From: an uncultured Planctomycetales bacterium
Lineage (GTDB): Bacteria; Omnitrophota; Gorgyraeia; Zapsychrales; JANLHA01
Length of the DNA: 64,000 nucleotides
Reading direction: 5' to 3'
NCBI GenBank assembly: GCA_964450385.1
Contig: CAYVEC010000007.1
Span: forward strand, 5,977 to 69,976
Under the pieces are notes generated by a model. The model saw only the letters and a list, made by a program, of their open reading frames with translations. It had not been told where the DNA came from and did no database searches. How positions within the stretch are numbered: position 1 is the stretch's first letter; every line of letters starts with the position of its first letter. Below are positions 32,069-62,264 of this stretch, one piece after another. The translations under genes and the position numbers were made by a program.

Positions 32069-33226
32069 ATGCGGATCGCGTTGCTATCCTGGGAGGCGGT
32101 TCATTCGATCTATGTGGGAGGTGTGGCCTTTCATGTGACCGAACTCGCCTGCGCGTTACAGCGTAAGGGCCATGAGGTCCACGTCTTTACCCGGATGGGG
32201 AAACCTGATCATCCGCGTTATGAGCGGATCCATGGGGTTCATTATCATCGCTGTCCGTTCGGGGCGAATCTTGATTTTGTCGAAGAGATCCATAATATGT
32301 CCCGCGCCTTTTGCGATGCCTTCTTCTTTACTGAGGACAGGGTAGGCCACTTTGACGTGGTCCATGCCCATGACTGGCTCGCGGCGCCGGCCATGTATTG
32401 GATCAAACAGGGGCGCGGCAACCATACTGTTTTTACGATCCACTCGACCGAATACGGCCGCTGCGGAAATAATTTTTACGGCGGCAATTCCGAACGGATC
32501 CGTCATATTGAATGGAAGGCCTGTTATGAGGCCGACAGCGTGATCGCGGTCTCGCATTCGCTGAAGAACGAGGTGCAGTGGATCTACGGCGTTCCGGATT
32601 CGAAAGTGGATGTCGTCTACAACGGCATCGATTATCAAAAGTTTGATGGCTGGGTCGAGCCGGCCGCGGTGAAGAAGATGTATGATATCGGGCCGATGGA
32701 CCCGATGGTCCTTTTTGTCGGACGCATGGTCTATCAGAAGGGGGTCGACCTCCTGGTGAGCGCGATCCCGCATGTCTTGTCGTACTATCCGAATGCGAAG
32801 TTCGTCTTTGCCGGCGACGGAGAGATGCGCGGTCAGGTCGAGGAGCAGTCCGTGAGGATAGGGGTCAAACACGCCTGCCGGTTTTTGGGTCATGTCAACG
32901 GATGGCGCTTAAAGGATCTGTTTAAATCCACGGACTGTGTCTGTGTGCCGAGCCGGAACGAGCCGTTTGGGATCGTGATCCTTGAGGCCTGGAGCGCGGG
33001 CAAGCCTGTTGTGGCGAGCGCGAATGGCGGGCCCTCCGAGATCGTCTGGCATGAGATCAATGGACTTAAGATCGCGGACAATCCTGAGTCGATTGCCTGG
33101 GGGATCGGGTCATTGTTCGAGGATTTTGATGACGCCCGATGGATGGGCAGCAATGGACGGATTGCGGCTGAGTCGGTTTTTTCATGGGATATCATCGCGG
33201 ATGAGGTCGTTTCGATTTATGGGTAA
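32069..33226 (+). CDS. Archaeal-type glycogen (alpha-glucan) synthase, GT4/GT5-like
   Basis: MRIALLSWEAVHSIYVGGVAFHVTELACALQRKGHEVHVFT...HDW...FTIH...NGID...EPFGIVILEA matches the Pyrococcus-type GS signature. Confidence 0.6.
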   Translation: MRIALLSWEAVHSIYVGGVAFHVTELACALQRKGHEVHVFTRMGKPDHPRYERIHGVHYHRCPFGANLDFVEEIHNMSRAFCDAFFFTEDRVGHFDVVHAHDWLAAPAMYWIKQGRGNHTVFTIHSTEYGRCGNNFYGGNSERIRHIEWKACYEADSVIAVSHSLKNEVQWIYGVPDSKVDVVYNGIDYQKFDGWVEPAAVKKMYDIGPMDPMVLFVGRMVYQKGVDLLVSAIPHVLSYYPNAKFVFAGDGEMRGQVEEQSVRIGVKHACRFLGHVNGWRLKDLFKSTDCVCVPSRNEPFGIVILEAWSAGKPVVASANGGPSEIVWHEINGLKIADNPESIAWGIGSLFEDFDDARWMGSNGRIAAESVFSWDIIADEVVSIYG

Positions 33227-33244: not shown

Positions 33245-34606
33245 GTGGCAGAGCGAGCGAAGAAAAAGACAGCGGCAGTGAAGAAGGCTGCTACGACGAG
33301 GGTCAAGAGCGCGTCCAAAACGGTTCGGAAGTCTGAGGTCAAAAAGACGCCGGCCGCGGTAAAGGCAGCAGCCCGGCCGCGGAAGGCCTCGGCGATCGCG
33401 GCCGCGATGGCCACGGCCATTGATCGGATCGATCCGTCGAAGACGGCGGTGACGAACCCACGGCTGAACGGGATGATCCGTGAGAATCTCTCCCATGCCT
33501 CACGTGCACGCAAGGCAGTTTTCGTTGACAGCGAGATGATGCCGGACAATTATGGTTCAACAAGCATTACCCTTTTGGCGCGCGATCCCCACTGGGTCCA
33601 TGCCTATTGGGAGGTTGCTCCGGCCGCGGTGGGTGAGGCCTGCGCGCGTCTTGGTCTGGAGCAGGGGCACACTGCGTGGGTTCTGAGGATGTACGATGTG
33701 ACCCTGATCAACTTTAATGGCCAGAATGCCCATCATTGGTTCGATGTCGAGGTCGGTCCTGACGCGAATAATTGGTATGTAAATCTCTGGAGTGATCACG
33801 TCACTTATTGCGCGGAGATCGGGGTGAGGGCGCCGGACGGGCGTTTTGAAGCGCTCGCGCGTTCGAATGCTGTCACGACCCCGCGTGAATATATTTCTGC
33901 TCGGAACGAACTTGTCTGGATGGAGGTGGTGCAGCCTGAGGGTGAAGAGCCCGTGACCGCCGAACCATATGTCTACGCGAGCGGGAGCTGGGTTGAGGAT
34001 GAGGCGGAGGGGAAGGAAGGGGTTGCCGCGGCCCGACGGGGTAAGGGCCGGAGGTTCCGGATCTATCTTACGGAGGAGGACATCCGCGCCTATTATGCCC
34101 GGCTCTTTCCGCTGCTCCGGCGGATCTTGTCGCGACGGCGTCGAAAATCCACGCGAAAGACTATTGATACCGGCGATGCGGACCTGTTATTGGAAGAGCT
34201 CGAAGACATGGACCTGCCGGGGTACAGCTATTTTCGAAAAATACTCCTGGGCGCGTCCGAAGAGGCCTGGCTCCGCGGCCGCGGGCAGCGTGCCGGCCAG
34301 CCCGGCGGGGCGAGTGAGGAACTTGTTTCGTCCTGGACCACATCCCAGGCGCCGGCGAAGCCCGAGGGGTTTTTCTTCGAACTCGGGACCGAATTGATCG
34401 TTTACGGCCGGACCGAACCGGATGCCACGGTGACGTGGCACGGGCGGCCCGTGGCCCTTCGTCCCGACGGGACGTTTACCCTGCGGATGGCCCTGCCGAC
34501 CGATACGCACATTCCGTTGGATTTTAAAGCGGTTTCATTCAATCAGCGGCATCAGCGCCTGATCACGACCGCTGCTAACCGTGAGAAGACTGAATACGCG
34601 GAGTGA
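33245..34606 (+). CDS. DUF4912-like protein with N-terminal Lys/Ala-rich histone-H1-like tail
   Basis: N-terminus AKKKTAAVKKAATTRVKSASKTVRK...; core ...LLARDPHWVHAYWEV...; in operon with GH57 genes. Confidence 0.5.
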   Translation: MAERAKKKTAAVKKAATTRVKSASKTVRKSEVKKTPAAVKAAARPRKASAIAAAMATAIDRIDPSKTAVTNPRLNGMIRENLSHASRARKAVFVDSEMMPDNYGSTSITLLARDPHWVHAYWEVAPAAVGEACARLGLEQGHTAWVLRMYDVTLINFNGQNAHHWFDVEVGPDANNWYVNLWSDHVTYCAEIGVRAPDGRFEALARSNAVTTPREYISARNELVWMEVVQPEGEEPVTAEPYVYASGSWVEDEAEGKEGVAAARRGKGRRFRIYLTEEDIRAYYARLFPLLRRILSRRRRKSTRKTIDTGDADLLLEELEDMDLPGYSYFRKILLGASEEAWLRGRGQRAGQPGGASEELVSSWTTSQAPAKPEGFFFELGTELIVYGRTEPDATVTWHGRPVALRPDGTFTLRMALPTDTHIPLDFKAVSFNQRHQRLITTAANREKTEYAE

Positions 34607-34668: not shown

Positions 34669-36270
34669 ATGCCCAAAGGATATCTTGCGTTAGTCTTGCA
34701 CGCCCATCTGCCGTTTGTCCGTCATCCTGAGGAAGAGTATTTTCTCGAAGAGAATTGGTTGTACGAGGCCATTACCGAGACCTACATTCCCTTACTGCAC
34801 GTCTTTGATCAGTTGACCCGCGAGCGGGTTCGGTTCCGGGTGACGATGTCGCTCACGCCGCCGCTCATCAGCATGCTCCAGGACCCACTCCTTCAGGACC
34901 GGTATATTCGTCATCTCGACCGGCTGATCGAACTTTCAGAACGCGAGATTCATCGGACGGGATATGAGGCCCACTATCATGGTTTGGCCCTGATGTACAA
35001 TCACCGTTTTCGTGAATACAAAAAATATTTTGTTGATGGGGTCCAGCGGGATTTGATCGCGGCCTTTAAGTATTTTCAGGATGCCGGGGTCCTCGAGATC
35101 ATTACCTGCTGCGCGACCCACGGGTTTCTTCCGATCCTCGGTGTCAATCCGAAGGCCGCTGAGGCGCAGGTGAAGATCGCGGTTGAGCATTATAAAAAGA
35201 CGTTTGACCGTCAGCCGAGGGGGATCTGGCTGCCGGAATGTGGGTTTTTGCCCGGGGTGGATGAGATCGTGCGTGATGCCGGGGTCCGGTATTTCTTTGT
35301 GGATTCGCACGGGATCATTAACGCGGATCCGCGGCCGCGCTATAGTGTCTATGCCCCGCTCTATACCCCGGCGGGGGTCGCGGCCTTCGGCCGTGACTGG
35401 GAATCTTCGAAGCAGGTCTGGAGCGCGCAGGAGGGTTACCCCGGGGATGTGGATTATCGTGAGTATTACCGCGACATCGGGCATGAACTCGAGTATGAAT
35501 ATATCCGGCCGTTCATCCATCCGTCGGGGTTGCGGGTGAATACCGGGATGAAATACTGGCGCATCACCGGACGCACGGAATATAAGGAGGCGTACCGGCC
35601 GGACTGGGCCCGTCAGAAGGCGGCCCAGCATGCTGGGCATTTTATGTTCAATCGCGAGAAGCAGGTCGAACATGTGGCGGCCCACATGGACCGTAAGCCG
35701 ATCATTGTGGCCCCGTATGATGCCGAGCTTTATGGGCACTGGTGGTACGAGGGCCCGATGTTCCTTGATTTCTTGTTCCGTAAGATGCATTATGATCAGG
35801 ATACGGTGAAGACGATCACGCCGTCGGAATATCTGACCGAATATCCCACGAACCAGATGGCGATGCCGTCCACCTCAAGCTGGGGATATAAAGGATACAG
35901 TGAGTACTGGCTCGAGGGCGGCAATGACTGGATCTATCGGCATATCCATAAGGCCGGGGAACGGATGGTCGAGCTCGCCGGGAAATTCAAGGCCAAGCTG
36001 TCGCCGCGGAGCAAACCTTCGCTAGTCAAGCGGGCCTTGAACCAGGCGGCGCGGGAACTTCTCCTCGCTGAGGCAAGCGACTGGCCGTTCATCATGAAGT
36101 CCGGGACCATGGTCCCCTACGCCAACCGCCGGGTGCGGCTTCATATCGCGCGTTTCACCCGGCTGTATGATGATCTGTTGAAGAACACGATTGACGAGGA
36201 CTGGCTCGCCGAGGTGGAATGGCGGGACAATATTTTTTCTCAGATCGATTGCGCCAAATATTATCTCTAA
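34669..36270 (+). CDS. GH57-family 1,4-alpha-glucan branching enzyme
   Basis: N-terminus MPKGYLALVLHAHLPFVRHPE... and catalytic regions typical of GH57 GBE (Thermus/Thermococcus type); ~533 aa. Confidence 0.8.
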   Translation: MPKGYLALVLHAHLPFVRHPEEEYFLEENWLYEAITETYIPLLHVFDQLTRERVRFRVTMSLTPPLISMLQDPLLQDRYIRHLDRLIELSEREIHRTGYEAHYHGLALMYNHRFREYKKYFVDGVQRDLIAAFKYFQDAGVLEIITCCATHGFLPILGVNPKAAEAQVKIAVEHYKKTFDRQPRGIWLPECGFLPGVDEIVRDAGVRYFFVDSHGIINADPRPRYSVYAPLYTPAGVAAFGRDWESSKQVWSAQEGYPGDVDYREYYRDIGHELEYEYIRPFIHPSGLRVNTGMKYWRITGRTEYKEAYRPDWARQKAAQHAGHFMFNREKQVEHVAAHMDRKPIIVAPYDAELYGHWWYEGPMFLDFLFRKMHYDQDTVKTITPSEYLTEYPTNQMAMPSTSSWGYKGYSEYWLEGGNDWIYRHIHKAGERMVELAGKFKAKLSPRSKPSLVKRALNQAARELLLAEASDWPFIMKSGTMVPYANRRVRLHIARFTRLYDDLLKNTIDEDWLAEVEWRDNIFSQIDCAKYYL

Positions 36271-37719: not shown

Positions 37720-37917
37720 TTTTTTTATCCCTTCTGAAAATTTTTATATAAAATCCACAAACCATTGTGTTTTATGGGGTTATGCCTTCAAGAAAAGTTT
37801 GCGAAAGCGCTTTCTTTCATATATACTTTATAAGTACTAAATACTGATATTTGGAAGCCTTTGTGTGCCGCATTTCTCTACTCTTTTCAAATTTTATATC
37901 AAACGAAGGAGACAGGA

Positions 37918-40900
37918 ATGGTTTTGAGCCAGTACAAACAACGTCGGGGGTGTGTTTGTCGTGTGATCTCAGCGCTTCTTGTGGTTATCTTCTCTTCAAG
38001 TTTGATCCTTCCTCCATCCGTCGTTCAGGCTCAAATCATTCCAACATTGCCGCCGCCCGGGACCATGGTCATGGCGAGTCCGCATTTTGTTCCGGTCCTT
38101 TTAAAAGGGATTCAACCCGATCCGCAGAATCCGCTGCAATTCACCTTTTTTTTCAATACCGGTGATGTGAAGGAAAGCGACGAGGCCCTCCGGGCCGATA
38201 TCCTGCGGCTTATCCGATATTTTATGGCCGCGCTCACCGTGCCCGAGGATCAACTCTGGGTCAACCTCTCGCCGTATGAGGCGGGCCGGATCGTCTCCGA
38301 CTCCTTAGGCGCGACCGAGATGGGGATCGATCTCTTGGCGCAGGACTATATGTTGAAACAGCTCACCGCCAGCCTTTTATATCCAGAGAATGAACTCGGT
38401 CAGAAGTTCTGGAAGCGCGTTCAGCAGCAGGCACAGGCTCGGTTCGGCCGGTCCGATATTTCGCTTGAGGTTTTAAATAAGGTGTGGATCACGCCGAATG
38501 AGGCGGTTGTCTACGAACATAATGGCGCTGCGTATGTGGTGAAAAGCAGCCTGAAGGTTTTGTTGGAACAGGATTACATGGGCTTGGAGGCGAATTCATT
38601 ACAAGGGTCAGGGCCCAACGGGTCGTTGTCGAACGAAGGCCAGGCGATGTCCCCCGAGATGGTCTCCATTATAAAGGAAATCGTGATCCCTGAGATCGAG
38701 CGGGAGATCAATCAGGGCGAGACCTTTGCCCAGCTCCGTCAGGTCTATCAGTCGATGATCTTAGCGACCTGGTTTAAATTGAACCTTCGGCAGACCCTCC
38801 TGGGGCAGGTTTACGCGGATCAGCAGAAGGTGAAGGGAATTGACCTGGCGGATCCAGCGGCCCCGGAGGAGGTCTACAACCGCTATCTCGAGGGATTTCA
38901 AAAGGGCGTTTATGAATTTATCCGGGAGGATTATGACGAGGCCACGCATCGGGTGATCCCCAGGAAATATTTTTCAGGTGGTGTTGTTGTGCCGAAGGAT
39001 TTTAATCCTAAACGGATCACGGGCGAGCCTGCCACATTGTCTCCTGCCGACCGGGCGGTTGTTCGAGCGGGGCTGGCGTCCAACAATGGCGGAGACGGTA
39101 GCGCTCGGGTCGGGCTTGTTGAAAATGGAAATCCAGAGAGCCTTGAGGCGGCGAGGAGGCCAAAGGGCACAGACGGCGCGATGATCGCGTCACGGGTTGA
39201 TCTTACGATGCTAAATCCGCGAACCGAGAGTTCGGCGGTTGACCGGGCGCTCGTTCGGGCCGGGGGTGTCGTGGCCGGGGTCACCGCCTATGATGACCAG
39301 GGCCGGATCGCGGCGGCCCCGGTGTTAGTCGGCGATGATATTCAACAGAAGATGCAGGGCACGGCGATCATGATCGATGTCTCGATCGATCAAGGCGGCA
39401 ATATTCGACACCGATTGCCGGATGGTTTTAAATATTCTCATAGCACGCCCGCTGTAAAGAACCCGAATGGCCAGATCACCGAAGGGGTTCCGAATATGCT
39501 AGCGGCCATGGGTCAGCTCGCCACCCCGTATCTTTCCGAGGCGCGACAGCCGTATTTGATCGCCCTCATCAAGATGATCCAGGCCGTGCGTGACGGTCGG
39601 GAATTTTCAGCTGATGATGCGGTCCTGCGCACGGGATTAAAAAAAGGGTTCCGGTTCCTCGCGGGTGAGAATCTGGATGAGCAGGGCCTCTCACCGGAAG
39701 AGCTGGACCGAAAGATCCGCCAGGGCTTTGAACCGATCGCTGAGGGGCTACGGCGCGGGGCGACGTTGACGATTGGCGTGCCCGCCGAGATCCTCCAGGG
39801 GGAACGACGGTTCGGGATCACGCCGGTGATCGTTCAAGATCTTCAAGAACGATTCGGAGACGAGATCCAATTTAATGTGGAGCGCGGCGGCGGTGCCTTA
39901 AGCGAGATCAGCGATGGTGAATTTCCGTCGAGCGTTAATATGGTGTCTGCAGCCGGGGCTTGGAACAGCGATATTGTCTTAAAGATTAAGCAGCCTTTGT
40001 CAAATGAGCTTCACCGATTTCGCGAAGACGGAGTGATTTTTACCTATTATCATTTGGAGAACCGTTCGATCGCCGAGTCAGGATTAAAGGAGGCGCTCGT
40101 GGGCGCCAGGTCGTGTGCGATCGCCTATGAATCGGTGCGTGATGAGGCAGGCGGAACCCCGCTATTAAATCCGATGTCCCATATCGCCGGATGGCTTGCC
40201 TCGATGCGGTATGCCGTGTATCAGGGGCTGATCCGTGAGGGTTACGACCTGTTTAATGAGAGCGGGGTTCTTCGGTCTGAGGCCGTTAGTGAGATCAATC
40301 GCCGGCTCAAACCGATCATTGATTTTATTGCGGAAGGGGATCATTTTGACCGGCTTAAACGCCATGAATTGGTGATCACGCAAGACGTCCTCGCCGAGGC
40401 TGGTATCCCTCGTGATATTGGAGAGGTGGTGTTCCTCGGTGCGGGTCATGTGGGCCGAGAGGCTGCCCATATGTTTGTCCTGTTAGGTGGCATAAAGATG
40501 ACTGTCACCGAGACGAACCCGGCCCGTCAGGCCTCCTTGGCTGAAGACCTAAACAAGGTTGGAGATCGGGTCGCCCGTGATCACGGGATGCTGTCCCAAC
40601 AGTTCGAACTTGTGAGCGGGCCGATCCGTGTGGGGGCAGAGGATGATGTTCTTGCGTTCTATTTAAAAAATCGTGATAGCGCGGACCCCGCCCAATATAT
40701 CCTTGAAGTTGTGCCTCATGGCCGACGGGAGGGTCAATTTATTTTTAAATACGCTCTTCATCGTGTTAATGGTCACGCAACGGAGTGGAGATTGTCGAAG
40801 GAAGGGGCAGAGACTGCGACGGACATGTTCGGTATTGTAAGCCATGGGACCGATGAGGAACGGGACGCGCTGGCTGCGAGCTGGCCGCAGATCATTGATG

Positions 40901-43647
40901 AATTGGAACAGGCGAATGGGGGCAGGGTTCAAGTCCCGAGCGCTCGTGATGCCGGGATGATTAGCGCTCGGATCGGGCAGAAACAGGATATGAGTCTCCG
41001 CTTCGATGATCCTGTTTTGAATAAATTGATGAGGCGGGTCATCTCAGATAAAAGTGGTTTTGTGGTTTCGGATGTCTCGCTTGAGGCTATGCTGTCAGAG
41101 CTTGATCAAGACGGGCAGATCGCGCTCTTTCGTGGGGGGTTAGGGTTTTTGGCCGGAGAGACCTTCGGGGCGTATCGGAACGGGATCGGTGTCATGCCCT
41201 TGTACCATCAAAATTACAAGGGAAAACAAATTGATTGGCGTCATGAGAAGGGAATTCATGTCGTTACTGTTGATGGCAAAGAGTTAAAGTTGGCGGTTGA
41301 ACTGGCAGGGAAGACATATGAAACGACTGTTTTTTGGGTGAATCGAAAAGGCACTCCGGTCTTTTTGTTCGAGAATAAGGAGATCTTTCATCAGTTGTAT
41401 CCAGATCCGATGACCGGGGTCGAACGCATGCGTCAGTACGCGTTTTTGGGTAAGGCGTATGTAGCGCTGATGAATGCCTTGGAACTCAGGCCTGATATTT
41501 TGCGTCTTAATGAGGCTCAGCTGATGTTTGTTCAGCGCGCTATTGAGCTAGATCGTGCTGATAAAGGCGCCGACAGTGTGTTTGGTGGAACGCGGACGGT
41601 GATGACGAATCACACTCCAGAGAAGGCCGCATTGCCGAGGTTTTCACGGTACGTTGAAGGGGCGGGGCGGATGTGGTATCCCTTAGAAAAAGTGACGGGG
41701 ACCGATATGGTCTCATCTGATATGTTCGCCTCAGACGGCCAGATTAATGCCGCTGAATGGTTGGGACGGCGGTCGGTCTTGGTGACCGCGGTTTCAGAGG
41801 AACACGCGGAGGTGACGAAGCGTTTTGTCCTGCCGCAGTTGAGCGATCATATCACGGGGATCCAGAATGGATCTGATCCCGACGAGTGGCAGTCACCGGA
41901 ATTGAACGCCTTGATGAAGAAGGTCGGCCTTGAAGGTGTCACGGGTGAGGATCTGTGGCGTTTTCGGCAACAGCAGAAGACGCGGTTAAATGAGTGGCTG
42001 GCTCGTCACGGGGCCGGGGGATTTCATGATGTCAATCGTCCGTTATTTTCAGCAGTACGGCGATTGGTAACGTATAAAGCACAGGGGATCCTTGTTCCCT
42101 TGGTTGAGTGGATCACGGGAGATCCCGGGCGTGAGTATACGTTGCCGGATGGGAGCCGTCGCAATGGATTGGGTGCGAATCTCTTGGTCGGCGGTCCGGT
42201 AGCGGACACGATGGGCGAAGAATGGGCCCGGGAATTTAGGACATTGGCTCAGGATGAGCGGTTTCGAGGGAAGCTGGTTTTTGTAGAAGGGACCGGAAAA
42301 GAGATGATGCAGCTCGCGGCCTCTGCTCCGGACGGGTGGCTCGTGATGCCGCGTCTGACTCGTGAGGCGTCGGGGACCGGAGATCAACGGGCGGGGTTTA
42401 ATGGTGCGATCGTGATCGCGACCGCCACCGGCGGGCCGCTGGCGTGGGTGGAGGATGGAAAGAATGGCTGGCTGGTGGATCCGCTTGGGACCACAACGAC
42501 AAAGACACAAGACGGTGAATATGAACTCGGTGATGCGTTCAATCGCGTTGCCCTCATTTTGGATAATCCCGATCATCCGGAACACGCGGCTATCGTGGCC
42601 CGGTTTGAGCGTGAGGCTCAGGGGGTTTTTGCTGATCGGATGAGCCGGATCGTGATGATGTACCGGGCGTATGAGGCGGGGAGAGATAAGCGGATCTTGG
42701 GATTTATGAAGGGATCGTTTCAATCAGCCATGGAGAAGGTCTCCATTGACCGGATGATGAGTGACTATCAACGGTTGTTCCGTGAGGCGTTGAAACATGG
42801 GCAGACGAGCGACACCTTGGGCGCGGCGTCGTATGAGATCCAGCAGATCTCAGCGACTGAGGATGAGGAAAGGATCCGTCGATCTATTCAGCTGCTCAAG
42901 GATAGTTATGCGGGGCTCGCGGTCGATGGGAATCTTTCTCAATTGTTTAAAGGCCGGGGCCCGATTCGGGGAGTGATCCGCGATATTGCCGGGCAACCGC
43001 AAGTACAGGGCGGCGAAGAGGAGGCGCGGGTTGTGGTTGTGGCTGCGTGGCTCGTGGCCCATTTTGATCTTCGGTTATCAGCGGATGAATTCCGTATGCT
43101 GGTCCGCGGGATTATGACCCGTCAGGATCTTGGCGCCTTGATACGTTTTTCTCCTGAGATGCAGCGGCATTTTTATGAAGATGCCGAGAGCCTGCTCAAC
43201 GAGGTCATCCCCGGCGAGGAGAACATTGTCAAGGTTGAGGAGGGTTTCACGAGAGGAGAATCTCTGGCTCATATTTTGACACGGCAACGATTGGCCCGGT
43301 TGACATTGAAGCGGGCCTGGGCGAAGTTGCGGGCTCGCCACGAAACGCGTTCTGAAGGCACAACGCTGACCGAGCGATCGATTGATATTGACGTGCCTGC
43401 GGAGGGTCAGAAAACGGCCCCGGGTGGTATCGACCTTAATTCTGCGTATCTGGATCTGAAGATCGAACGCGATGGGCAGGGGGTTCCGCTCCCCATGTCT
43501 GAGCAGCCGGTGGATCTGATCCAACAGATCGAGGGGTTTGCCCCGGTCCTGATTGATATGACGCCGATCCCTGGGGTCTTGATGCTTTTAGGTATGGACC
43601 AGCAGGGCTCAGGAACGGTGGTGGGGCCGATGGCCAGGGCAGAGTAA
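37918..43647 (+). CDS. Giant (~1909 aa) secreted or membrane-anchored multidomain protein: unknown N-terminal region, AlaDH/PNT-family NAD(P)-binding module, GT35 alpha-glucan-phosphorylase-like domain, ~400-aa C-terminal extension
   Basis: Signal/anchor MVLSQ...ALLVVIFSSSLILPPSVVQAQ. AlaDH/PNT matches: IGVPAEIL...FGITP, FTYYHLE, IAYESV, LLNPMSHIAGWL, VVFLGAGHVGREAA. GT35 motifs: GGLGFLAGE, GVMPLY, TNHTPEKAALPRFS, EASGTGDQRAGFNG. Confidence 0.75.
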   Translation: MVLSQYKQRRGCVCRVISALLVVIFSSSLILPPSVVQAQIIPTLPPPGTMVMASPHFVPVLLKGIQPDPQNPLQFTFFFNTGDVKESDEALRADILRLIRYFMAALTVPEDQLWVNLSPYEAGRIVSDSLGATEMGIDLLAQDYMLKQLTASLLYPENELGQKFWKRVQQQAQARFGRSDISLEVLNKVWITPNEAVVYEHNGAAYVVKSSLKVLLEQDYMGLEANSLQGSGPNGSLSNEGQAMSPEMVSIIKEIVIPEIEREINQGETFAQLRQVYQSMILATWFKLNLRQTLLGQVYADQQKVKGIDLADPAAPEEVYNRYLEGFQKGVYEFIREDYDEATHRVIPRKYFSGGVVVPKDFNPKRITGEPATLSPADRAVVRAGLASNNGGDGSARVGLVENGNPESLEAARRPKGTDGAMIASRVDLTMLNPRTESSAVDRALVRAGGVVAGVTAYDDQGRIAAAPVLVGDDIQQKMQGTAIMIDVSIDQGGNIRHRLPDGFKYSHSTPAVKNPNGQITEGVPNMLAAMGQLATPYLSEARQPYLIALIKMIQAVRDGREFSADDAVLRTGLKKGFRFLAGENLDEQGLSPEELDRKIRQGFEPIAEGLRRGATLTIGVPAEILQGERRFGITPVIVQDLQERFGDEIQFNVERGGGALSEISDGEFPSSVNMVSAAGAWNSDIVLKIKQPLSNELHRFREDGVIFTYYHLENRSIAESGLKEALVGARSCAIAYESVRDEAGGTPLLNPMSHIAGWLASMRYAVYQGLIREGYDLFNESGVLRSEAVSEINRRLKPIIDFIAEGDHFDRLKRHELVITQDVLAEAGIPRDIGEVVFLGAGHVGREAAHMFVLLGGIKMTVTETNPARQASLAEDLNKVGDRVARDHGMLSQQFELVSGPIRVGAEDDVLAFYLKNRDSADPAQYILEVVPHGRREGQFIFKYALHRVNGHATEWRLSKEGAETATDMFGIVSHGTDEERDALAASWPQIIDELEQANGGRVQVPSARDAGMISARIGQKQDMSLRFDDPVLNKLMRRVISDKSGFVVSDVSLEAMLSELDQDGQIALFRGGLGFLAGETFGAYRNGIGVMPLYHQNYKGKQIDWRHEKGIHVVTVDGKELKLAVELAGKTYETTVFWVNRKGTPVFLFENKEIFHQLYPDPMTGVERMRQYAFLGKAYVALMNALELRPDILRLNEAQLMFVQRAIELDRADKGADSVFGGTRTVMTNHTPEKAALPRFSRYVEGAGRMWYPLEKVTGTDMVSSDMFASDGQINAAEWLGRRSVLVTAVSEEHAEVTKRFVLPQLSDHITGIQNGSDPDEWQSPELNALMKKVGLEGVTGEDLWRFRQQQKTRLNEWLARHGAGGFHDVNRPLFSAVRRLVTYKAQGILVPLVEWITGDPGREYTLPDGSRRNGLGANLLVGGPVADTMGEEWAREFRTLAQDERFRGKLVFVEGTGKEMMQLAASAPDGWLVMPRLTREASGTGDQRAGFNGAIVIATATGGPLAWVEDGKNGWLVDPLGTTTTKTQDGEYELGDAFNRVALILDNPDHPEHAAIVARFEREAQGVFADRMSRIVMMYRAYEAGRDKRILGFMKGSFQSAMEKVSIDRMMSDYQRLFREALKHGQTSDTLGAASYEIQQISATEDEERIRRSIQLLKDSYAGLAVDGNLSQLFKGRGPIRGVIRDIAGQPQVQGGEEEARVVVVAAWLVAHFDLRLSADEFRMLVRGIMTRQDLGALIRFSPEMQRHFYEDAESLLNEVIPGEENIVKVEEGFTRGESLAHILTRQRLARLTLKRAWAKLRARHETRSEGTTLTERSIDIDVPAEGQKTAPGGIDLNSAYLDLKIERDGQGVPLPMSEQPVDLIQQIEGFAPVLIDMTPIPGVLMLLGMDQQGSGTVVGPMARAE

Positions 43648-50321: not shown

Positions 50322-50388
50322 TCGATGATGTGTGAGACGCCTTCGGCCGGTCAGCCCGACGGCCAAGGCCGCCGCCTCGAAAGACGAC

Positions 50389-51642
50389 ATGAAACATGCT
50401 GTGTGTATGATCAGTCTTGGATGTGTCCGCAATCTTGTCGATTCGCAGGTCATGTTGGGTGCCATCCGCGACGGCGAGGTGGAGGTTGTGGACCTTGACC
50501 GCGCGGAGACCGTGATCGTGAACACCTGCGGATTTATTGAAGAGGCCAAGCAGGAGTCGCTCGACACCATCGCTGGGCTGATTGACCTAAAGAAGCGGGG
50601 CGAGATTCGGCATCTTGTGGTCGCCGGTTGTCTTGTGCAGCGTTATGTTGATGTGTTACATGGGGAGTTCCCTGAGATCGACGCCTTTATTGGGGTCCAG
50701 GAGCTTCTCCAAGACCGTGTCCCGGTGCAGCGGCCGCTCACTCCGCCGCACATGGCGTATCTGAAGATCTGCGAGAGCTGTTATAATCATTGCGCGTTTT
50801 GCGCGATTCCTAAGATTAAGGGACGGTTTGTTTCTCGCACGATCGAGTCGGTCTGCGATGAGGTGCGCGGTCTGGATCGTCGGGGTGTCAAAGAACTGAA
50901 TATCGTCGGTCAGGATATTACGGCCTATGGGATGGACCTCTATCGTCAACAGTCGCTCGCTCGATTGCTCCGCCAGATCTGCCGAGGGCTTGAACATATT
51001 CGATGGGTCCGGCTCCTGTATGCCTTCCCGGCCCATATCACGGAGGAATTGATCGGTGTGATCGCTGAGGAACCGCGGATCTGTAAATACGTGGATGTCC
51101 CGCTCCAGCACTGCAGCGATCCTATTCTTACGGCGATGAATCGCAGATTTTCACAGGCTCAGATCCGAGACCTCATTGGGCGCCTGCGTTCCCGGATCCC
51201 GGGGGTGCGGATCCGCACGGCGTTTATTACCGGGCTCCCAGGGGAACGCGAACGGGATTTTGAGGAATTGCTTGATTTTGTCCGGGAAATGCGTTTTGAT
51301 AAGGTCGGTGTCTTTGCGTATTCGCCTGAGGAAGGGACCCCCGCGTTCAACATGAGGGGCCGGGTTCCGGGAAAAGAGGCCAAACGCCGTCGTGATCTCG
51401 TGATGGAGGCTCAACAGGTGATCTCGCGGGAGCTGCAGGCTGCTTATGTTGGGAAGGCAATGACCGTTCTTATCGAGGAGCGCCAGGAGGATGGGATTTA
51501 CGTGGGTCGAAGTGAGTATGATGCCCCGGATGTTGATGGTGTTGTGTATGTCCAAACAGAGCGCACGCTTGCCATCGGAGATTTTTACGAGGTCATGATC
51601 ACCGATGCCTATGAATATGATCTGGCCGGAGAGGCGAGATGA
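50389..51642 (+). CDS. rimO: Ribosomal protein S12 methylthiotransferase RimO (radical SAM, TRAM)
   Basis: ISLGCVRNLVDS, radical-SAM CESCYNHCAFC, C-terminal ...EYDLAG; co-linear match to RimO rather than the longer MiaB. Confidence 0.8.
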   Translation: MKHAVCMISLGCVRNLVDSQVMLGAIRDGEVEVVDLDRAETVIVNTCGFIEEAKQESLDTIAGLIDLKKRGEIRHLVVAGCLVQRYVDVLHGEFPEIDAFIGVQELLQDRVPVQRPLTPPHMAYLKICESCYNHCAFCAIPKIKGRFVSRTIESVCDEVRGLDRRGVKELNIVGQDITAYGMDLYRQQSLARLLRQICRGLEHIRWVRLLYAFPAHITEELIGVIAEEPRICKYVDVPLQHCSDPILTAMNRRFSQAQIRDLIGRLRSRIPGVRIRTAFITGLPGERERDFEELLDFVREMRFDKVGVFAYSPEEGTPAFNMRGRVPGKEAKRRRDLVMEAQQVISRELQAAYVGKAMTVLIEERQEDGIYVGRSEYDAPDVDGVVYVQTERTLAIGDFYEVMITDAYEYDLAGEAR

Positions 51643-59672: not shown

Positions 59673-59747
59673 CCGTCGGGATGCGCTCGTTTAACCAGGG
59701 CCATCGGTTTTGTTTGTATCGAATGACCCATATGTTATAATGTCGCT

Positions 59748-60995
59748 ATGTCGAAACGGATGGTTATTACAGGTCTAGGCGTTCTGGCGCCGAACGCCAA
59801 GGGGAAAGAGGCCTATTGGCAGGCCCTTCGAGAGGGCCGTGCTGGGTATCGGCCGATTTCCCTCTTTGATGTCTCTCCGTTCAACACGCAGATCGGTGCG
59901 GAGGTCCCAGACTTTGATGCGACCGAGTATCTGGGAAAAAAAGGCCTCCGGAACATGGATCGGGCCACACGCCTGGTCCTTTCGGCGGCAAAGATGCTCA
60001 TGGAGGATTCCGGTTATGGTGACAAGATCAGCGACGAGGCAACGCACGACTTTGGGGTCTCGGTCGGAACCACGCTTGGGAGCATCGATAGCATCGTGGG
60101 TTTTGGTGAGGTGATTGTGCGGGAAGGCCCGCGCTATGTTAATCCCGCCCTTTTTCCGAACACCGTTCTGAATTCACCGGCAAGTCATATTTCGATCTGG
60201 TTCAATATCCAGGGATTTAATTCGACCTTATCCAACGGATTTACAACGAGCCTCGATGCCGTTCAATACGGCTGTGATGCGATCGCAAACGATCAGGTTC
60301 AGGCTGTCCTGACCGGCGGGGTCGAGGAGATGTCCTGGCACACCTTTTTCGGGTGTCACACCCTCCAATACCTGTCTGGGTCCGTTAAGGGCGAGCCGTT
60401 TGTGAACTGCCCGTTTGACCGACGGCGGAATGGGATCGTCTTGGGAGAGGGGGCCTGTCTCTTCGGTGTCGAGTCGCTCGCGTTTGCCCAAGGCCGTCAG
60501 GCCCGGATCATGGCGGAGATCGTGGCCTACGGGTATGAGTTTGATCATTTTCGCGCCTTTAAATTCAATCCGCGCGGGTCAGGGATGCGCCACGCGATGG
60601 CCCAGGCCCTGGATCAGGCCGGGATGTCTCCAGGGGATATTGACTGTATTTTCGCGAACGCGAATTCTACCGTGGCGGCGGACCGGATCGAGGCCGCGGC
60701 CATCCGTAAAATCTTTGGTCAGGCTGCCTCGCGGGTTCCTGTGACCGCGGTAAAATCGATGATCGGTGAGACGTATAGCGTTTCCGGGGCCTTGTCGGCC
60801 GCGGCGGCGCTCGGCGCGATGGAGAAGAGCTTTATTCCGCCGACAATTCATTATCAGGAGCCGGACCCGGAGTGCGATCTGGAGATCGTGGGGAATCAGG
60901 CGGTCCAGGCGGATCTGAAGAATGTCATGATTTTGAATTTTTCTCCGTCGGCAGGAAACGTCTGTTGGATCCTTAGGAAATGGAACGGGTCATGA
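59748..60995 (+). CDS. Beta-ketoacyl-ACP synthase (FabF/KAS-II)-like protein lacking the Cys-His-His catalytic triad (pseudo-KS / chain-length-factor-like)
   Basis: Co-linear with FabF (MSKRMVITGLGVLAP...), but ATACTSG becomes SNGFTTS, NAHGTST becomes NANSTVA, KSMTGH becomes KSMIGE (C to F, H to N, H to E). Confidence 0.75.
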   Translation: MSKRMVITGLGVLAPNAKGKEAYWQALREGRAGYRPISLFDVSPFNTQIGAEVPDFDATEYLGKKGLRNMDRATRLVLSAAKMLMEDSGYGDKISDEATHDFGVSVGTTLGSIDSIVGFGEVIVREGPRYVNPALFPNTVLNSPASHISIWFNIQGFNSTLSNGFTTSLDAVQYGCDAIANDQVQAVLTGGVEEMSWHTFFGCHTLQYLSGSVKGEPFVNCPFDRRRNGIVLGEGACLFGVESLAFAQGRQARIMAEIVAYGYEFDHFRAFKFNPRGSGMRHAMAQALDQAGMSPGDIDCIFANANSTVAADRIEAAAIRKIFGQAASRVPVTAVKSMIGETYSVSGALSAAAALGAMEKSFIPPTIHYQEPDPECDLEIVGNQAVQADLKNVMILNFSPSAGNVCWILRKWNGS

Positions 60996-61741
60996 ATGAT
61001 CTAAAAGGCAAGGCCGCGATCGTGACAGGCGGGTCCCGGGGGATCGGCCGGGCGCTCGTCTTAATGCTCGCGCGCGAGGGATGCGATGTCGCGTTTAATT
61101 ACGCGCAGAACGCCTCGGCGGCGACGGCGCTCGTGGAGGAGGCGGCGGCCTATGGGGTGCGTTGTCGTGCCCGTCAGGTCGATGTCCGGGATTTCGAGGC
61201 GGTGAAGAGTTGGGTCGCGGAGGCGAAGGAGGCCTTTGGGCGCCTGGATATTTTGATCAATAACGCGGGGATCATTAAGGACAAGCCGTTCTTGATGATG
61301 ACGCCCGATGAATGGCATGCGGTCATTGATACGAATCTGAACGGCATGTTCAATGCGGCCCGGACTTGTGTTTTTACCTTTTTGAAACAGCGCAGCGGGG
61401 TCATTGTTAATATCTCATCGATCAGCGGGATCATCGGATTGCCGGGGCAGACGAATTATTCGGCCTCGAAAGGCGGGATGAACGCCTTCACGAAGGCTTT
61501 GGCTAAGGAAGCCGCGCCGTATAACGTCCGCGTCAATGCCGTGGCCCCGGGGTTCATCGAGACCGATATGCTTGTCGGGATGCCCGAGGATATCCGCGCG
61601 AAACTCGTGGCGCAGGTCCCGCTCGGCCGTGTCGGAAGCGTCGAGGATGTCTGCGGCTGTGTCCGGTTTTTGATCAGTGACGATGCAGCGTACATGACAG
61701 GGCACATTATTCAGGTCGATGGCGGGTTGGCGATCCGTTAA
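60992..61741 (+). CDS. fabG: 3-oxoacyl-ACP reductase (SDR)
   Basis: TGGSRGIGRA, NNAG, S...YSASK catalytic tetrad elements. Confidence 0.8.
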   Translation: MNDLKGKAAIVTGGSRGIGRALVLMLAREGCDVAFNYAQNASAATALVEEAAAYGVRCRARQVDVRDFEAVKSWVAEAKEAFGRLDILINNAGIIKDKPFLMMTPDEWHAVIDTNLNGMFNAARTCVFTFLKQRSGVIVNISSISGIIGLPGQTNYSASKGGMNAFTKALAKEAAPYNVRVNAVAPGFIETDMLVGMPEDIRAKLVAQVPLGRVGSVEDVCGCVRFLISDDAAYMTGHIIQVDGGLAIR

Positions 61742-61756
61742 CGGGGAGGGGCGGGG

Positions 61757-62191
61757 ATGGAGCTCGGCGTTCAAGAGATCAAAAAGATCATTCCCCATCG
61801 GTATCCGTTTCTTCTTATCGATCGGGTGATTGAGGTCAAACCGAAAGAATACCTCGTGGCTGTTAAGAATGTCTCGGTGAATGAGATGTTTTTTAACGGG
61901 CATTTTCCGGAAGAAAAGGTCATGCCCGGGGTCCTTATTGTTGAGGCCATGGCCCAGGCGGCGTGCGTTTATGGGTATTTCTCTCAGGGATGGGAGGGGA
62001 GAAATTTGATCTATTATCTGGGCAAGGTCACGGCACGGTTCATTCGGCCGGTGCGCCCCGGGGATCGCCTGGAGATACGGATCTCGACGGTCAAGCTCCT
62101 TGCGATGACGGGGATCGTTAAAGCCGAGGCCTCGGTCGATGGGCAGGCGGTTGCCGCGGCGGAGATCGCCTTTGGGGTGAAAGAGGCATGA
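61757..62191 (+). CDS. fabZ: 3-hydroxyacyl-ACP dehydratase FabZ (hot-dog fold)
   Basis: ...PHRYPFLLIDRV...FFNGHFP...MPGVLIVEAMAQA... with catalytic His. Confidence 0.85.
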   Translation: MELGVQEIKKIIPHRYPFLLIDRVIEVKPKEYLVAVKNVSVNEMFFNGHFPEEKVMPGVLIVEAMAQAACVYGYFSQGWEGRNLIYYLGKVTARFIRPVRPGDRLEIRISTVKLLAMTGIVKAEASVDGQAVAAAEIAFGVKEA

Positions 62192-62264
62192 GCGTCTATC
62201 CGAACGAGAGAGACTGGGAGCAGCCGCAGGGCTGCTTTTTTATTGTCATGAAGGCGGGGTCGAA

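Follow-up and report, generated by a model that had tools for sequence, protein, structure and literature searches.

The window, i.e. the whole stretch of 64,000 nucleotides that was analysed, carries on its forward strand a compact unit of three genes, which encode a dead FabF-like ketosynthase (hereafter the dead KS), the reductase FabG and the dehydratase FabZ (Table 1). The three open reading frames lie exactly where the original prediction had placed them.

Table 1. Features of the dead KS–FabG–FabZ unit (positions are those of the window).
Feature	Position	Strand	Remarks
Extended -10-like element TGTTATAAT	59733..59741	+	Read from the sequence; putative
Dead FabF-like ketosynthase (KS), amxFabFmut type; F165, N304, E341, K336 kept	59748..60995	+	ORF of 415 aa; predicted non-catalytic subunit of a heterodimeric KS
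3-oxoacyl-ACP reductase FabG	60992..61741	+	ATGA start/stop overlap with the dead KS at 60992-60995; alternative upstream ATG at 60980
3-hydroxyacyl-ACP dehydratase FabZ	61757..62191	+	Catalytic His and Glu motifs intact
Terminator-like GC-rich hairpin, then T-run	62216..62249	+	Closes the three-gene unit

The overlap proposed between the stop codon of the dead KS and the start of FabG is real, and the same 4-nt ATGA is found in a related locus, L001. Since this 4-nt overlap is the conserved form, the more downstream of the two candidate start codons of FabG is the more probable. FabG has the motifs of a bona fide reductase, as had been claimed: TGxxxGIG, NNAG and Ser...YxxxK (here Ser...YSASK). 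It passes the model NF009466 (248 for a cutoff of 222) and falls 1.5 bits under the cutoff of TIGR01830 (296.2 vs 297.75 bits). The FabZ that follows closely, again as described, carries the motifs GHFP and EAMAQ and scores above the cutoffs of both FabZ equivalog models (NF000582, 166 vs 113; TIGR01750, 163 vs 155).

Upstream of the unit, a putative -35 element (TTGTAT, 59714-59719) is separated by a spacer of 16 nt from a TATAAT (59736-59741), which is itself preceded by the TG of an extended -10 element. This putative promoter was missed by a consensus scan because its -35 element matches the consensus at only three of six positions. The -10-like element ends 6 nt upstream of the ATG, so that a transcript initiated there would be leaderless. 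In many orthologous loci, the dead KS gene overlaps the upstream gene ribE, an arrangement that implies transcription together with the rib operon.

The operon is set inside a conserved string of housekeeping genes (rib operon, nusB, ligA), and its neighbours in the window are the rib operon, an HI0933-like flavoprotein and a PilZ protein. The sole radical-SAM gene nearby (50332-51642) is of the RimO/MiaB type; its orthologue in L001 has the UPF0004, Radical_SAM and TRAM domains. An Rfam scan of the window returned no matches.

Fold, catalytic residues and conservation of the dead KS

The dead KS had been described as co-linear with FabF over its full length, and this is borne out by domain searches, alignments and structure prediction. 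Both KS domains of Pfam, PF00109 and PF02801, are detected over residues 3-369 (E-values of 1e-32 and 1e-27), and the AF2 model, which has a pLDDT of 87.7 and is confident except for residues 110-141, is closest in the PDB to the FabF of B. subtilis (TM 0.93, Foldseek). It should be noted that the Foldseek PDB library is older than the release of 9s5h, and that it returned canonical FabFs only.

In HMMER alignments to solved FabFs, the catalytic Cys is replaced by Phe165 (tvtaCatg vs lsngFtts), the first His by Asn304 (inaHgtst vs ifaNanst) and the second His by Glu341 (ksmtgHllg vs ksmigEtys), while the active-site Lys, K336, is retained. The original prediction had proposed all three substitutions. 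Those of the Cys and of the second His are recovered as such; the replacement of the first His by Asn also stands, but not its register, since N306 had been paired with the His and the alignment places N304 there, two residues away. The loss of the entire Cys-His-His triad supports the view that the dead KS is a KS homologue that would not condense.

The residues at these positions hardly vary. Position 165 is Phe in 145 of the 146 family members, position 304 is Asn in 137 and position 341 is Glu in 141; K336 is invariant in all 146. Three further residues, F136, T139 and V140, are invariant in a 36-sequence alignment (A1), F136 and V140 also in the 146-sequence set. The dN/dS of the dead KS is about 0.04-0.07, below the values that the same genome pairs give for FabG and FabZ. 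The family is present in 347 species-representative genomes, the best 80 of which all belong to the Omnitrophota.

A fabF pseudogene in decay could also have lost its three catalytic residues, and it could also score below the cutoffs of the FabF models, as the dead KS does (306 vs 494 for the TIGR03150 equivalog model, 291 vs 387 for the NF005589 subfamily model). On the contrary, the reading frame runs uninterrupted from end to end, the same substitutions have become fixed among 146 orthologues, dN/dS is about 0.05, synteny is kept across the phylum and the stop codon is translationally coupled to FabG. The conservation of the residues across the 146 members excludes both decay and a misalignment of the triad caused by indels; we therefore reject the pseudogene reading, to which we give practically no weight.

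Kinship with amxFabFmut and probable location of the active ketosynthase

In anammox bacteria, amxFabFmut is the inactive, chain-length-factor (CLF)-like partner of the active ketosynthase amxFabF2; the two proteins co-purify and are active only together, in malonyl-ACP decarboxylation and acetoacetyl-ACP formation, while isolated amxFabFmut shows neither activity nor ACP crosslinking (10.64898/2026.05.19.726425). Residues F135, T138 and V139 of amxFabFmut line the substrate tunnel, and the protein from S. brodae crystallised as a homodimer in which a helix-loop-helix motif is disordered (10.64898/2026.05.19.726425). The authors interpreted the pair with ladderane biosynthesis in mind and described it as including the first CLF in a fatty-acid pathway (10.64898/2026.05.19.726425).

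The closest characterised relative of the dead KS is the amxFabFmut of B. fulgida (PDB 9s5h_C; 347 bits, 43% identity over 409 aa), whereas any catalytic KS scores at most 227 bits. F136, T139 and V140 of the dead KS correspond to the tunnel residues F135, T138 and V139, and the residues modelled with low confidence, 110-141, agree with the motif that is disordered in the amxFabFmut homodimer crystal. In a neighbour-joining tree, the dead KSs of Omnitrophota group with amxFabFmut, and the active KSs of Omnitrophota with amxFabF2, each in 100 of 100 bootstraps; canonical FabFs fall outside both groups. A crude count of net charges in the helix-loop-helix and in the helix with which it interacts did not reproduce the published electrostatic complementarity, even for the anammox pair.

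The bit score, the common clade and the invariant tunnel residues support the original proposal of a CLF-like partner, and being such a partner of an active KS is the best-supported role of the dead KS. Heterodimer formation was demonstrated, in a preprint, for the anammox proteins only; by analogy, it would also take place in Omnitrophota.

An active KS and an ACP had been expected nearby, possibly past the end of the window or elsewhere. The operon of the window consists of the dead KS, FabG and FabZ only, neither a partner KS nor an ACP was found within the 64 kb, and searches by motif and by phmmer detected an ACP neither in the window nor in loci that share its gene order. In other Omnitrophota lineages, the operon of the dead KS also encodes an amxFabF2-like active KS and an ACP, in the orders deadKS-FabG-ACP-FabZ-activeKS or FabG-deadKS-FabZ-activeKS-ACP; the dead and active KS genes sometimes overlap by 4 nt, and the Cys-His-His triad of the linked active KSs is intact. 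In most loci, the dead KS is not linked to any KS. Some lineages have a thioester reductase beside the cluster, which would be in keeping with a pathway dedicated to fatty alcohols or aldehydes.

The case of a relative with the gene order of the window is informative as to where the partner may be. On its 229,850-bp contig, the rib-deadKS-FabG-...-FabZ genes are at 39-44 kb and an amxFabF2-like KS is at about 167 kb, some 125 kb from the dead KS. This KS is 52% identical to amxFabF2, passes the NCBIfam FabF subfamily model NF005589 and occupies the fabF slot of the array recG-rsmD-coaD-yceD-rpmF-plsX-fabH-fabD-FabZ'-KS; this plsX array recurs on at least 10 further contigs. The partner KS of the organism studied here would be of this kind, by extrapolation from a relative with a dead KS of 55% identity. 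Regarding the searches, the top 120 matches of the B. fulgida amxFabF2 protein were all from anammox bacteria, and a profile of Omnitrophota active KSs worked instead. The gene-order statistics come from the best 80 loci of the active-KS metagenome scan, and the 1.17-Mb contig of L001 falls outside these 80.

The dead KS most likely pairs with an active KS encoded elsewhere. It may be asked whether it could act without any KS partner, for instance as a homodimer that binds acyl-ACP or ACP and serves FabG and FabZ as a scaffold or regulator. Such a role would be in line with the absence of linkage to a KS in most loci, with the homodimer crystal of S. brodae amxFabFmut and with the fact that, in the structure of the heterodimer, the dead subunit retains its own tunnel. 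We consider it quite improbable, however, in view of the lineages, many in number, where the active KS gene is adjacent or overlapping, of the inactivity and lack of ACP crosslinking of amxFabFmut alone, and of the motif at the dimer interface and tunnel, which is the most conserved segment and is disordered without the partner.

Another proposal is that Asn304, Glu341 and Lys336 of the dead KS support a different catalysis, such as decarboxylation or acyl transfer, as Rattray et al. proposed earlier for amxFabFmut. The near-invariance of these three residues suggests that selection acts on the former active site, and there is a weak similarity to the model of the cispentacin AmcF acyltransferase subunit. 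Yet the latter score is far under the cutoff (119 bits vs 325), position 165 offers no nucleophile in the 145 of 146 members where it is Phe, and the isolated dead subunit is inactive (10.64898/2026.05.19.726425), which makes this proposal very improbable.

A candidate role in type II fatty acid synthesis

We consider it probable that the dead KS, a FabF paralogue of the amxFabFmut family, is the non-catalytic partner of an amxFabF2-type KS in a heterodimer that belongs to the type II fatty acid synthase (FAS II) of Omnitrophota. According to this proposal, the dead KS would perform no condensation and would form a 1:1 heterodimer with the active KS. Its helix-loop-helix (residues about 110-141, including F136, T139 and V140) would complete and shape the acyl tunnel of the partner, which would hold the single active site, and the dead KS would also contribute to the surface on which the ACP docks; the heterodimer would thereby set activity and chain-length preference. 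Expression of the dead KS would be tied to that of FabG and FabZ by their common operon, with translational coupling. The gene of the active subunit would lie elsewhere, in the fabF slot of the rpmF-plsX-fabH-fabD array, and that of the ACP at a third locus. Together these subunits would make up the type II fatty acid synthase of the organism, and would serve primary lipid metabolism rather than a secondary-metabolite pathway.

The original prediction had favoured a specialised pathway of the polyketide or aryl-polyene type over core fatty acid synthesis. This part is not upheld: the housekeeping neighbours, the conservation across the phylum, the canonical scores of FabG and FabZ and the position of the partner in the plsX array all point to FAS II, and a housekeeping role of the operon is what this context suggests. 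A broader version of the specialised reading is that the operon serves a ladderane-like, aryl-polyene-like or fatty-alcohol/ether-lipid pathway beside a separate canonical FAS, with the dead KS as its CLF. The homologous anammox pair is indeed encoded in a putative ladderane cluster, with a canonical FabF elsewhere, antiSMASH tags such Omnitrophota clusters as 'ladderane', the cluster is succeeded by a thioester reductase in Ca. Velamenicoccus as well as on several metagenome contigs, and a third, divergent KS is often close by. On the contrary, neither here nor in the about 60 loci that share the gene order does the operon have beside it a B12-radical-SAM or phytoene-desaturase-like gene, as in ladderane Cluster I, or an aryl-polyene gene. 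The operon lies between the rib operon and ligA, its FabG and FabZ score at canonical levels, the partner KS holds the fabF slot of the rpmF-plsX-fabH-fabD array, and the plsX arrays have no FabG close by. A specialised pathway thus appears unlikely to us, and a place in FAS II remains the reading that we prefer.

A wider proposition, which we regard as possible rather than probable, is that primary fatty acid synthesis, throughout the Omnitrophota and on related metagenome contigs, relies for its essential elongating condensing enzyme on an obligate heterodimer, in which one KS is active and the other dead. If so, a CLF-like subunit would belong to housekeeping FAS II and not to secondary metabolism, and the primary fatty acid synthesis of a whole phylum would depend on a pseudo-enzyme subunit. 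The 'ladderane' KS pair of anammox bacteria would derive from an older, PVC-type FAS module instead of being a ladderane-specific invention. The work on the anammox enzyme would call for a new framing. What antiSMASH labels 'ladderane' outside anammox bacteria would simply be core FAS; the KS pair would be no marker of ladderanes, which would explain the puzzling 'ladderane BGC' calls in Omnitrophota. Genome annotation would also be concerned, since dead KSs are currently named beta-ketoacyl-ACP synthase.

A KS/CLF-like heterodimer in fatty acid synthesis was first described in 2026, in anammox bacteria. The present locus shows that the dead-KS family is fixed across another, uncultured phylum, in which ladderanes are not known, that it is integrated there into housekeeping arrays of fab and plsX genes, and that the dead KS can be genetically unlinked from its partner.

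Comparison with known systems

Like canonical FabF (KAS II; B. subtilis 4ls5, E. coli 1kas), with which it is collinear throughout, the dead KS has neighbours of a FAS II operon. Unlike canonical FabF, it lacks the Cys-His-His triad and has Pro400 in place of the gating Phe of the GFGG motif; the prediction is that it does not work as a homodimeric enzyme.

The CLFs of type II polyketide synthases (KS-beta; ActI-ORF2, PDB 1tqy_B; Iga12 of the ishigamide system, PDB 6kxd) are inactive KS paralogues that are expected to heterodimerise and to shape the acyl tunnel, as the dead KS would. However, the match to the act CLF 1tqy_B (133 bits) is below those of all FabFs, and the top 60 matches do not include Iga12. 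The Cys site has Phe instead of the Gln typical of aromatic-polyketide CLFs, the dead KS has no KS gene of its own next to it, and it keeps company with FAS-type FabG, FabZ, plsX, fabH and fabD. Given the score and the absence of an adjacent KS, membership of these CLFs is rejected. An aryl-polyene KS/CLF system is rejected as well: no aryl-polyene KS model is among the NCBIfam matches and the genes around the operon are of the housekeeping kind. With the flexirubin FlxB model, FabG reaches a score of 250, for a cutoff of 340.

The nearest known system is amxFabFmut (Broful02170 in Brocadia fulgida, or KustE3606 in K. stuttgartiensis; PDB 9s5h/9s5i, chain C). Both proteins have the full-length FabF fold and the tunnel-lining FPNTV motif, they share a clade with 100% bootstrap, and they have lost the triad in the same manner, with a hydrophobic residue for the Cys, Asn and Glu for the two His, and the Lys kept (V, N, E and K in amxFabFmut); moreover, the phylum of the window protein also has amxFabF2-like active KSs. 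They differ at the Cys position, which is Phe in the window protein and Val or Thr in amxFabFmut, and in their hosts, Omnitrophota, in which ladderane production is not known, as opposed to anammox bacteria. The genes of the partner KS and of the ACP are adjacent in anammox Cluster I and not in the window. The window operon lacks the radical-SAM and desaturase genes of the anammox ladderane cluster; its partner genes are a canonical FabZ and a FabG, the latter an enzyme that anammox Cluster I does not encode, and its context is one of housekeeping genes.

A ketosynthase homologue without its catalytic triad

The protein encoded by the first gene of the operon has both ketosynthase (KS) domains at full length (Pfam), and its residues 3–409 are collinear with positions 1–406 of the NCBIfam FabF model, in agreement with the full-length collinearity of the original prediction. 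In the HMMER alignment with solved FabFs, the catalytic Cys is replaced with Phe165, the first catalytic His with Asn304 and the second with Glu341, and Lys336 is kept. All three predicted substitutions are therefore found, although the register proposed for the first His was two residues off, which does not affect the conclusion. This "dead KS" scores 306 bits on the FabF model, against a cutoff of 494, and with its triad replaced it cannot be considered a canonical FabF.

The second and third ORFs had been read as FabG and FabZ. They match the SDR/KR families and the FabA/FabZ hotdog family, respectively (Pfam), and the NCBIfam scores agree: FabZ clears both FabZ equivalog models, and FabG clears one FabG subfamily model and falls 1.5 bits short of TIGR01830. 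The proposed overlap of the FabG start with the dead KS stop is real (ATGA, 60992–60995). Since it also occurs in L001, a homologous locus on a 1.17-Mb contig, the FabG start is probably at 60992.

Upstream of the dead KS gene, the only good −10 element is the extended −10 TGTTATAAT; the candidate promoter was not among the hits of the consensus scan. Just 6 nt, with no Shine-Dalgarno sequence among them, separate this −10 from the ATG (59733–59750), and transcription from here would give a leaderless mRNA. The dead KS gene of several orthologous loci instead overlaps the stop of the upstream ribE. The Rfam scan of the window (1–64000) gave no family at gathering score, and no FMN riboswitch 5' of ribBA-ribH and ribD-ribE. 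Elsewhere in the window, a 1928-aa ORF, adjoined by glycogen-type genes, is an unusual fusion of alanine dehydrogenase/PNT and GT5 domains.

Positions of the features in the window and in related loci
Feature	Location	Remarks
−35 TTGTAT	59714–59719	3/6 positions match
−10 TATAAT	59736–59741	perfect; preceded by TG (extended −10)
Dead KS ORF	59748–60995	415 aa; same strand as the other two ORFs
FabG ORF	60980–61741	253 aa in ORF listing; same strand as dead KS
FabZ ORF	61757–62191	144 aa; same strand as dead KS
GC-rich hairpin and T-run	62216–62249	3' of FabZ
GT4	32069–33226	glycogen-type
DUF4912	33245–34606	glycogen-type
GH57 branching enzyme	34669–36270	glycogen-type
1928-aa ORF	37861–43647	alanine dehydrogenase/PNT N- and C-domains, order swapped, and starch-synthase (GT5) domain
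FabZ'	L083 9562–10008; L089 8896–9336; L041 3561–3980; L057 11254–11667	second, divergent FabZ-like gene
Third KS type	L090 15499–16800	similar matches in L071, L095, L102, L109, L113–L116, L146, L155
Inserted defence/toxin-antitoxin-type genes	L086 8010–10969; L090 8222–9962 and 11281–12678	
Thioester reductase	L080 13967–15064	NAD_binding_4; TIGR01746, 158 bits
Type-A locus	JBFOMO010000179.1, ~39–44 kb	rib operon, deadKS, FabG, Mrr/HepT insertion, FabZ, acylphosphatase, ligA
amxFabF2-like KS array	JBFOMO010000179.1, ~167 kb	recG, rsmD, coaD, yceD, rpmF, plsX, fabH, fabD, FabZ', KS

Conservation in Omnitrophota

More than 100 homologues of the dead KS were found (52–73% identity), and every named one is from Candidatus Omnitrophota. 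A family-specific motif scan of 185,579 species-representative genomes detected a relative in 347 of them. The top 80 belong to Omnitrophota (MAGs, some labelled "uncultured Planctomycetales" or "Planctomycetia" in the record), and the complete Ca. Velamenicoccus archaeovorus genome is one of them.

The original prediction named a degraded pseudogene as one case that would oppose it. This is ruled out by three observations. The substitutions are fixed in the 146 family members (F165 in 145, E341 in 141, N304 in 137; K336, F136 and V140 are invariant). The dN/dS with the closest relatives is 0.04–0.07, lower than that of FabG (0.08–0.14) and FabZ (0.16–0.20) in the same genome pairs, although dS is saturated. 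Last, the synteny is kept: around the L001 ortholog (56% identical), the order is ftsK, rodZ, rimO, pgsA, pgpA, cinA, ribBA, ribH, nusB, ribD, ribE, deadKS, FabG, FabZ. The dead KS is a real, conserved feature of Omnitrophota.

The dead KS and FabG of the window are closest to those of L003/L004, unlike its FabZ, which is ~51% identical to theirs and 66–70% identical to that of more distant type-A genomes (L001/L051); this suggests that FabZ diverged faster, or was replaced, in the L003/L004 sister lineage.

Gene orders and the active ketosynthase

Neither a second KS nor an ACP is encoded in the 64-kb window; the original prediction had expected both nearby, possibly past the window end or elsewhere. 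In the best 80 of the 347 genomes, three orders were distinguished. In order A, that of the window (about 60 of the 80 loci), deadKS-FabG-FabZ has no active KS within 10 kb. Order B, as in Ca. Velamenicoccus, is deadKS-FabG-ACP-FabZ-activeKS-thioester reductase, and order C is (FabG)-ACP-deadKS-FabZ'-activeKS. Compact permutations occur on other metagenome contigs (FabG-deadKS-FabZ-activeKS-ACP, for example), some with a 4-nt overlap of the two KS genes, and some with plsX, fabH and rpmF close by. The KSs linked to a dead KS have an intact Cys-His-His triad. Their AHGTGT and GHTMG motifs also occur in amxFabF2, the active KS of a pair from anammox bacteria, to which these KSs are 49–57% identical, versus 39–43% to B. 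subtilis FabF.

Using a profile built from these linked KSs, we found one 229,850-bp contig (JBFOMO010000179.1) that holds both a type-A locus and, at a second locus, an amxFabF2-like KS in a plsX array (404 bits, above the NCBIfam FabF subfamily cutoff of 387). The same plsX array is present on at least ten further contigs, where such a KS takes the place of fabF without a dead KS in the vicinity. In genomes of the window's type, the active subunit would be encoded elsewhere.

FabZ' lies directly 5' of the active KS in type-A and type-C genomes and scores 50–83 bits against the window FabZ; the L083 copy is below both FabZ cutoffs. Several copies retain the Glu motif but have another sequence in place of the canonical GHFP His motif, or have that motif shifted (GQGYKSAVFPE, for example). 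FabZ' may be a dehydratase of an amxFabZ-like or non-canonical kind. A third KS type (~430 aa) is often found a few kb 3' of the active KS: the L090 copy, the only one translated, has an intact triad, 27–30% identity to active KSs and 207 bits on the FabF model, and the others are tblastn matches of 26–30%. The fab arrays of some Omnitrophota are interrupted by defence and toxin-antitoxin-type genes (Mrr, MNT/HepT, DUF1016, AbiEii and several 23S-rRNA-intervening-sequence proteins).

Pathway and relation to the anammox system

The operon probably belongs to the primary type II FAS of Omnitrophota, because it supplies canonical-looking FabG and FabZ, because the plsX arrays contain no close FabG, because the putative partner KS fills the fabF slot beside plsX, fabH and fabD, and because the module is conserved phylum-wide among housekeeping genes. 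On the basis of this gene context, we replace the specialised polyketide pathway proposed earlier; membership of an aryl-polyene system is rejected. The stand-alone thioester reductase that adjoins the type-B cluster would also be consistent with a branch dedicated to fatty alcohols or aldehydes. It directly follows the active KS in Ca. Velamenicoccus archaeovorus and in several contigs (L080, L092, L099, L122 and L153), which hints at release of a fatty aldehyde or alcohol.

The best solved match of the dead KS is chain C of PDB 9s5h (347 bits), versus at most 227 bits for catalytic KSs and 133 bits for the actinorhodin chain-length factor (CLF). By its sequence, it is not a PKS CLF. The 9s5h structure is the Brocadia fulgida heterodimer of amxFabF2 with its inactive counterpart amxFabFmut, described in a May 2026 preprint: the two proteins co-purify, each alone is inactive, together they catalyse malonyl-ACP decarboxylation and acetoacetyl-ACP formation, and ACP contacts both subunits (10.64898/2026.05.19.726425). 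The wall of the substrate tunnel includes Phe135, Thr138 and Val139 from a helix-loop-helix motif of amxFabFmut, and these residues affect chain-length preference (10.64898/2026.05.19.726425).

The dead KS is 43% identical to amxFabFmut, versus 32–33% to either amxFabF2 or B. subtilis FabF. In common with amxFabFmut, it has Asn and Glu in place of the two catalytic His, and it carries the tunnel motif FPNTV, in which F136, T139 and V140 are invariant. In an NJ tree, the Omnitrophota dead KSs form one split with amxFabFmut and the Omnitrophota active KSs one split with amxFabF2 (100/100 bootstraps each), canonical FabFs being outside both. The dead KS is placed in the amxFabFmut family by its fold, its triad pattern, the tunnel residues and the tree; the earlier idea of a CLF-like pseudo-enzyme was correct. 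Residues 110–141 (GSxxSIxxFDxxxLxEGPRYxNPxxFPNTVI), the only low-confidence stretch of the AF2 model (pLDDT 45–64), are conserved more strongly than any other part of the family sequence, and the equivalent segment of the active partner is highly variable; in amxFabFmut, the heterodimer alone shows the matching segment ordered, and crystals of the homodimer show it disordered (10.64898/2026.05.19.726425). The most likely role of the dead KS is that of a non-catalytic subunit in a heterodimeric condensing enzyme.

Unlike amxFabFmut genes, the dead KS gene of the window does not adjoin its predicted partner and has no ladderane-type neighbours. Clusters that antiSMASH labels "ladderane" are already on record from Omnitrophota MAGs, with a suggested link to fatty-acid synthesis, so that such genes outside anammox bacteria are not new. 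What is new is the placement of the dead KS in the only recently characterised amxFabFmut type, its housekeeping context and the split three-locus organisation.
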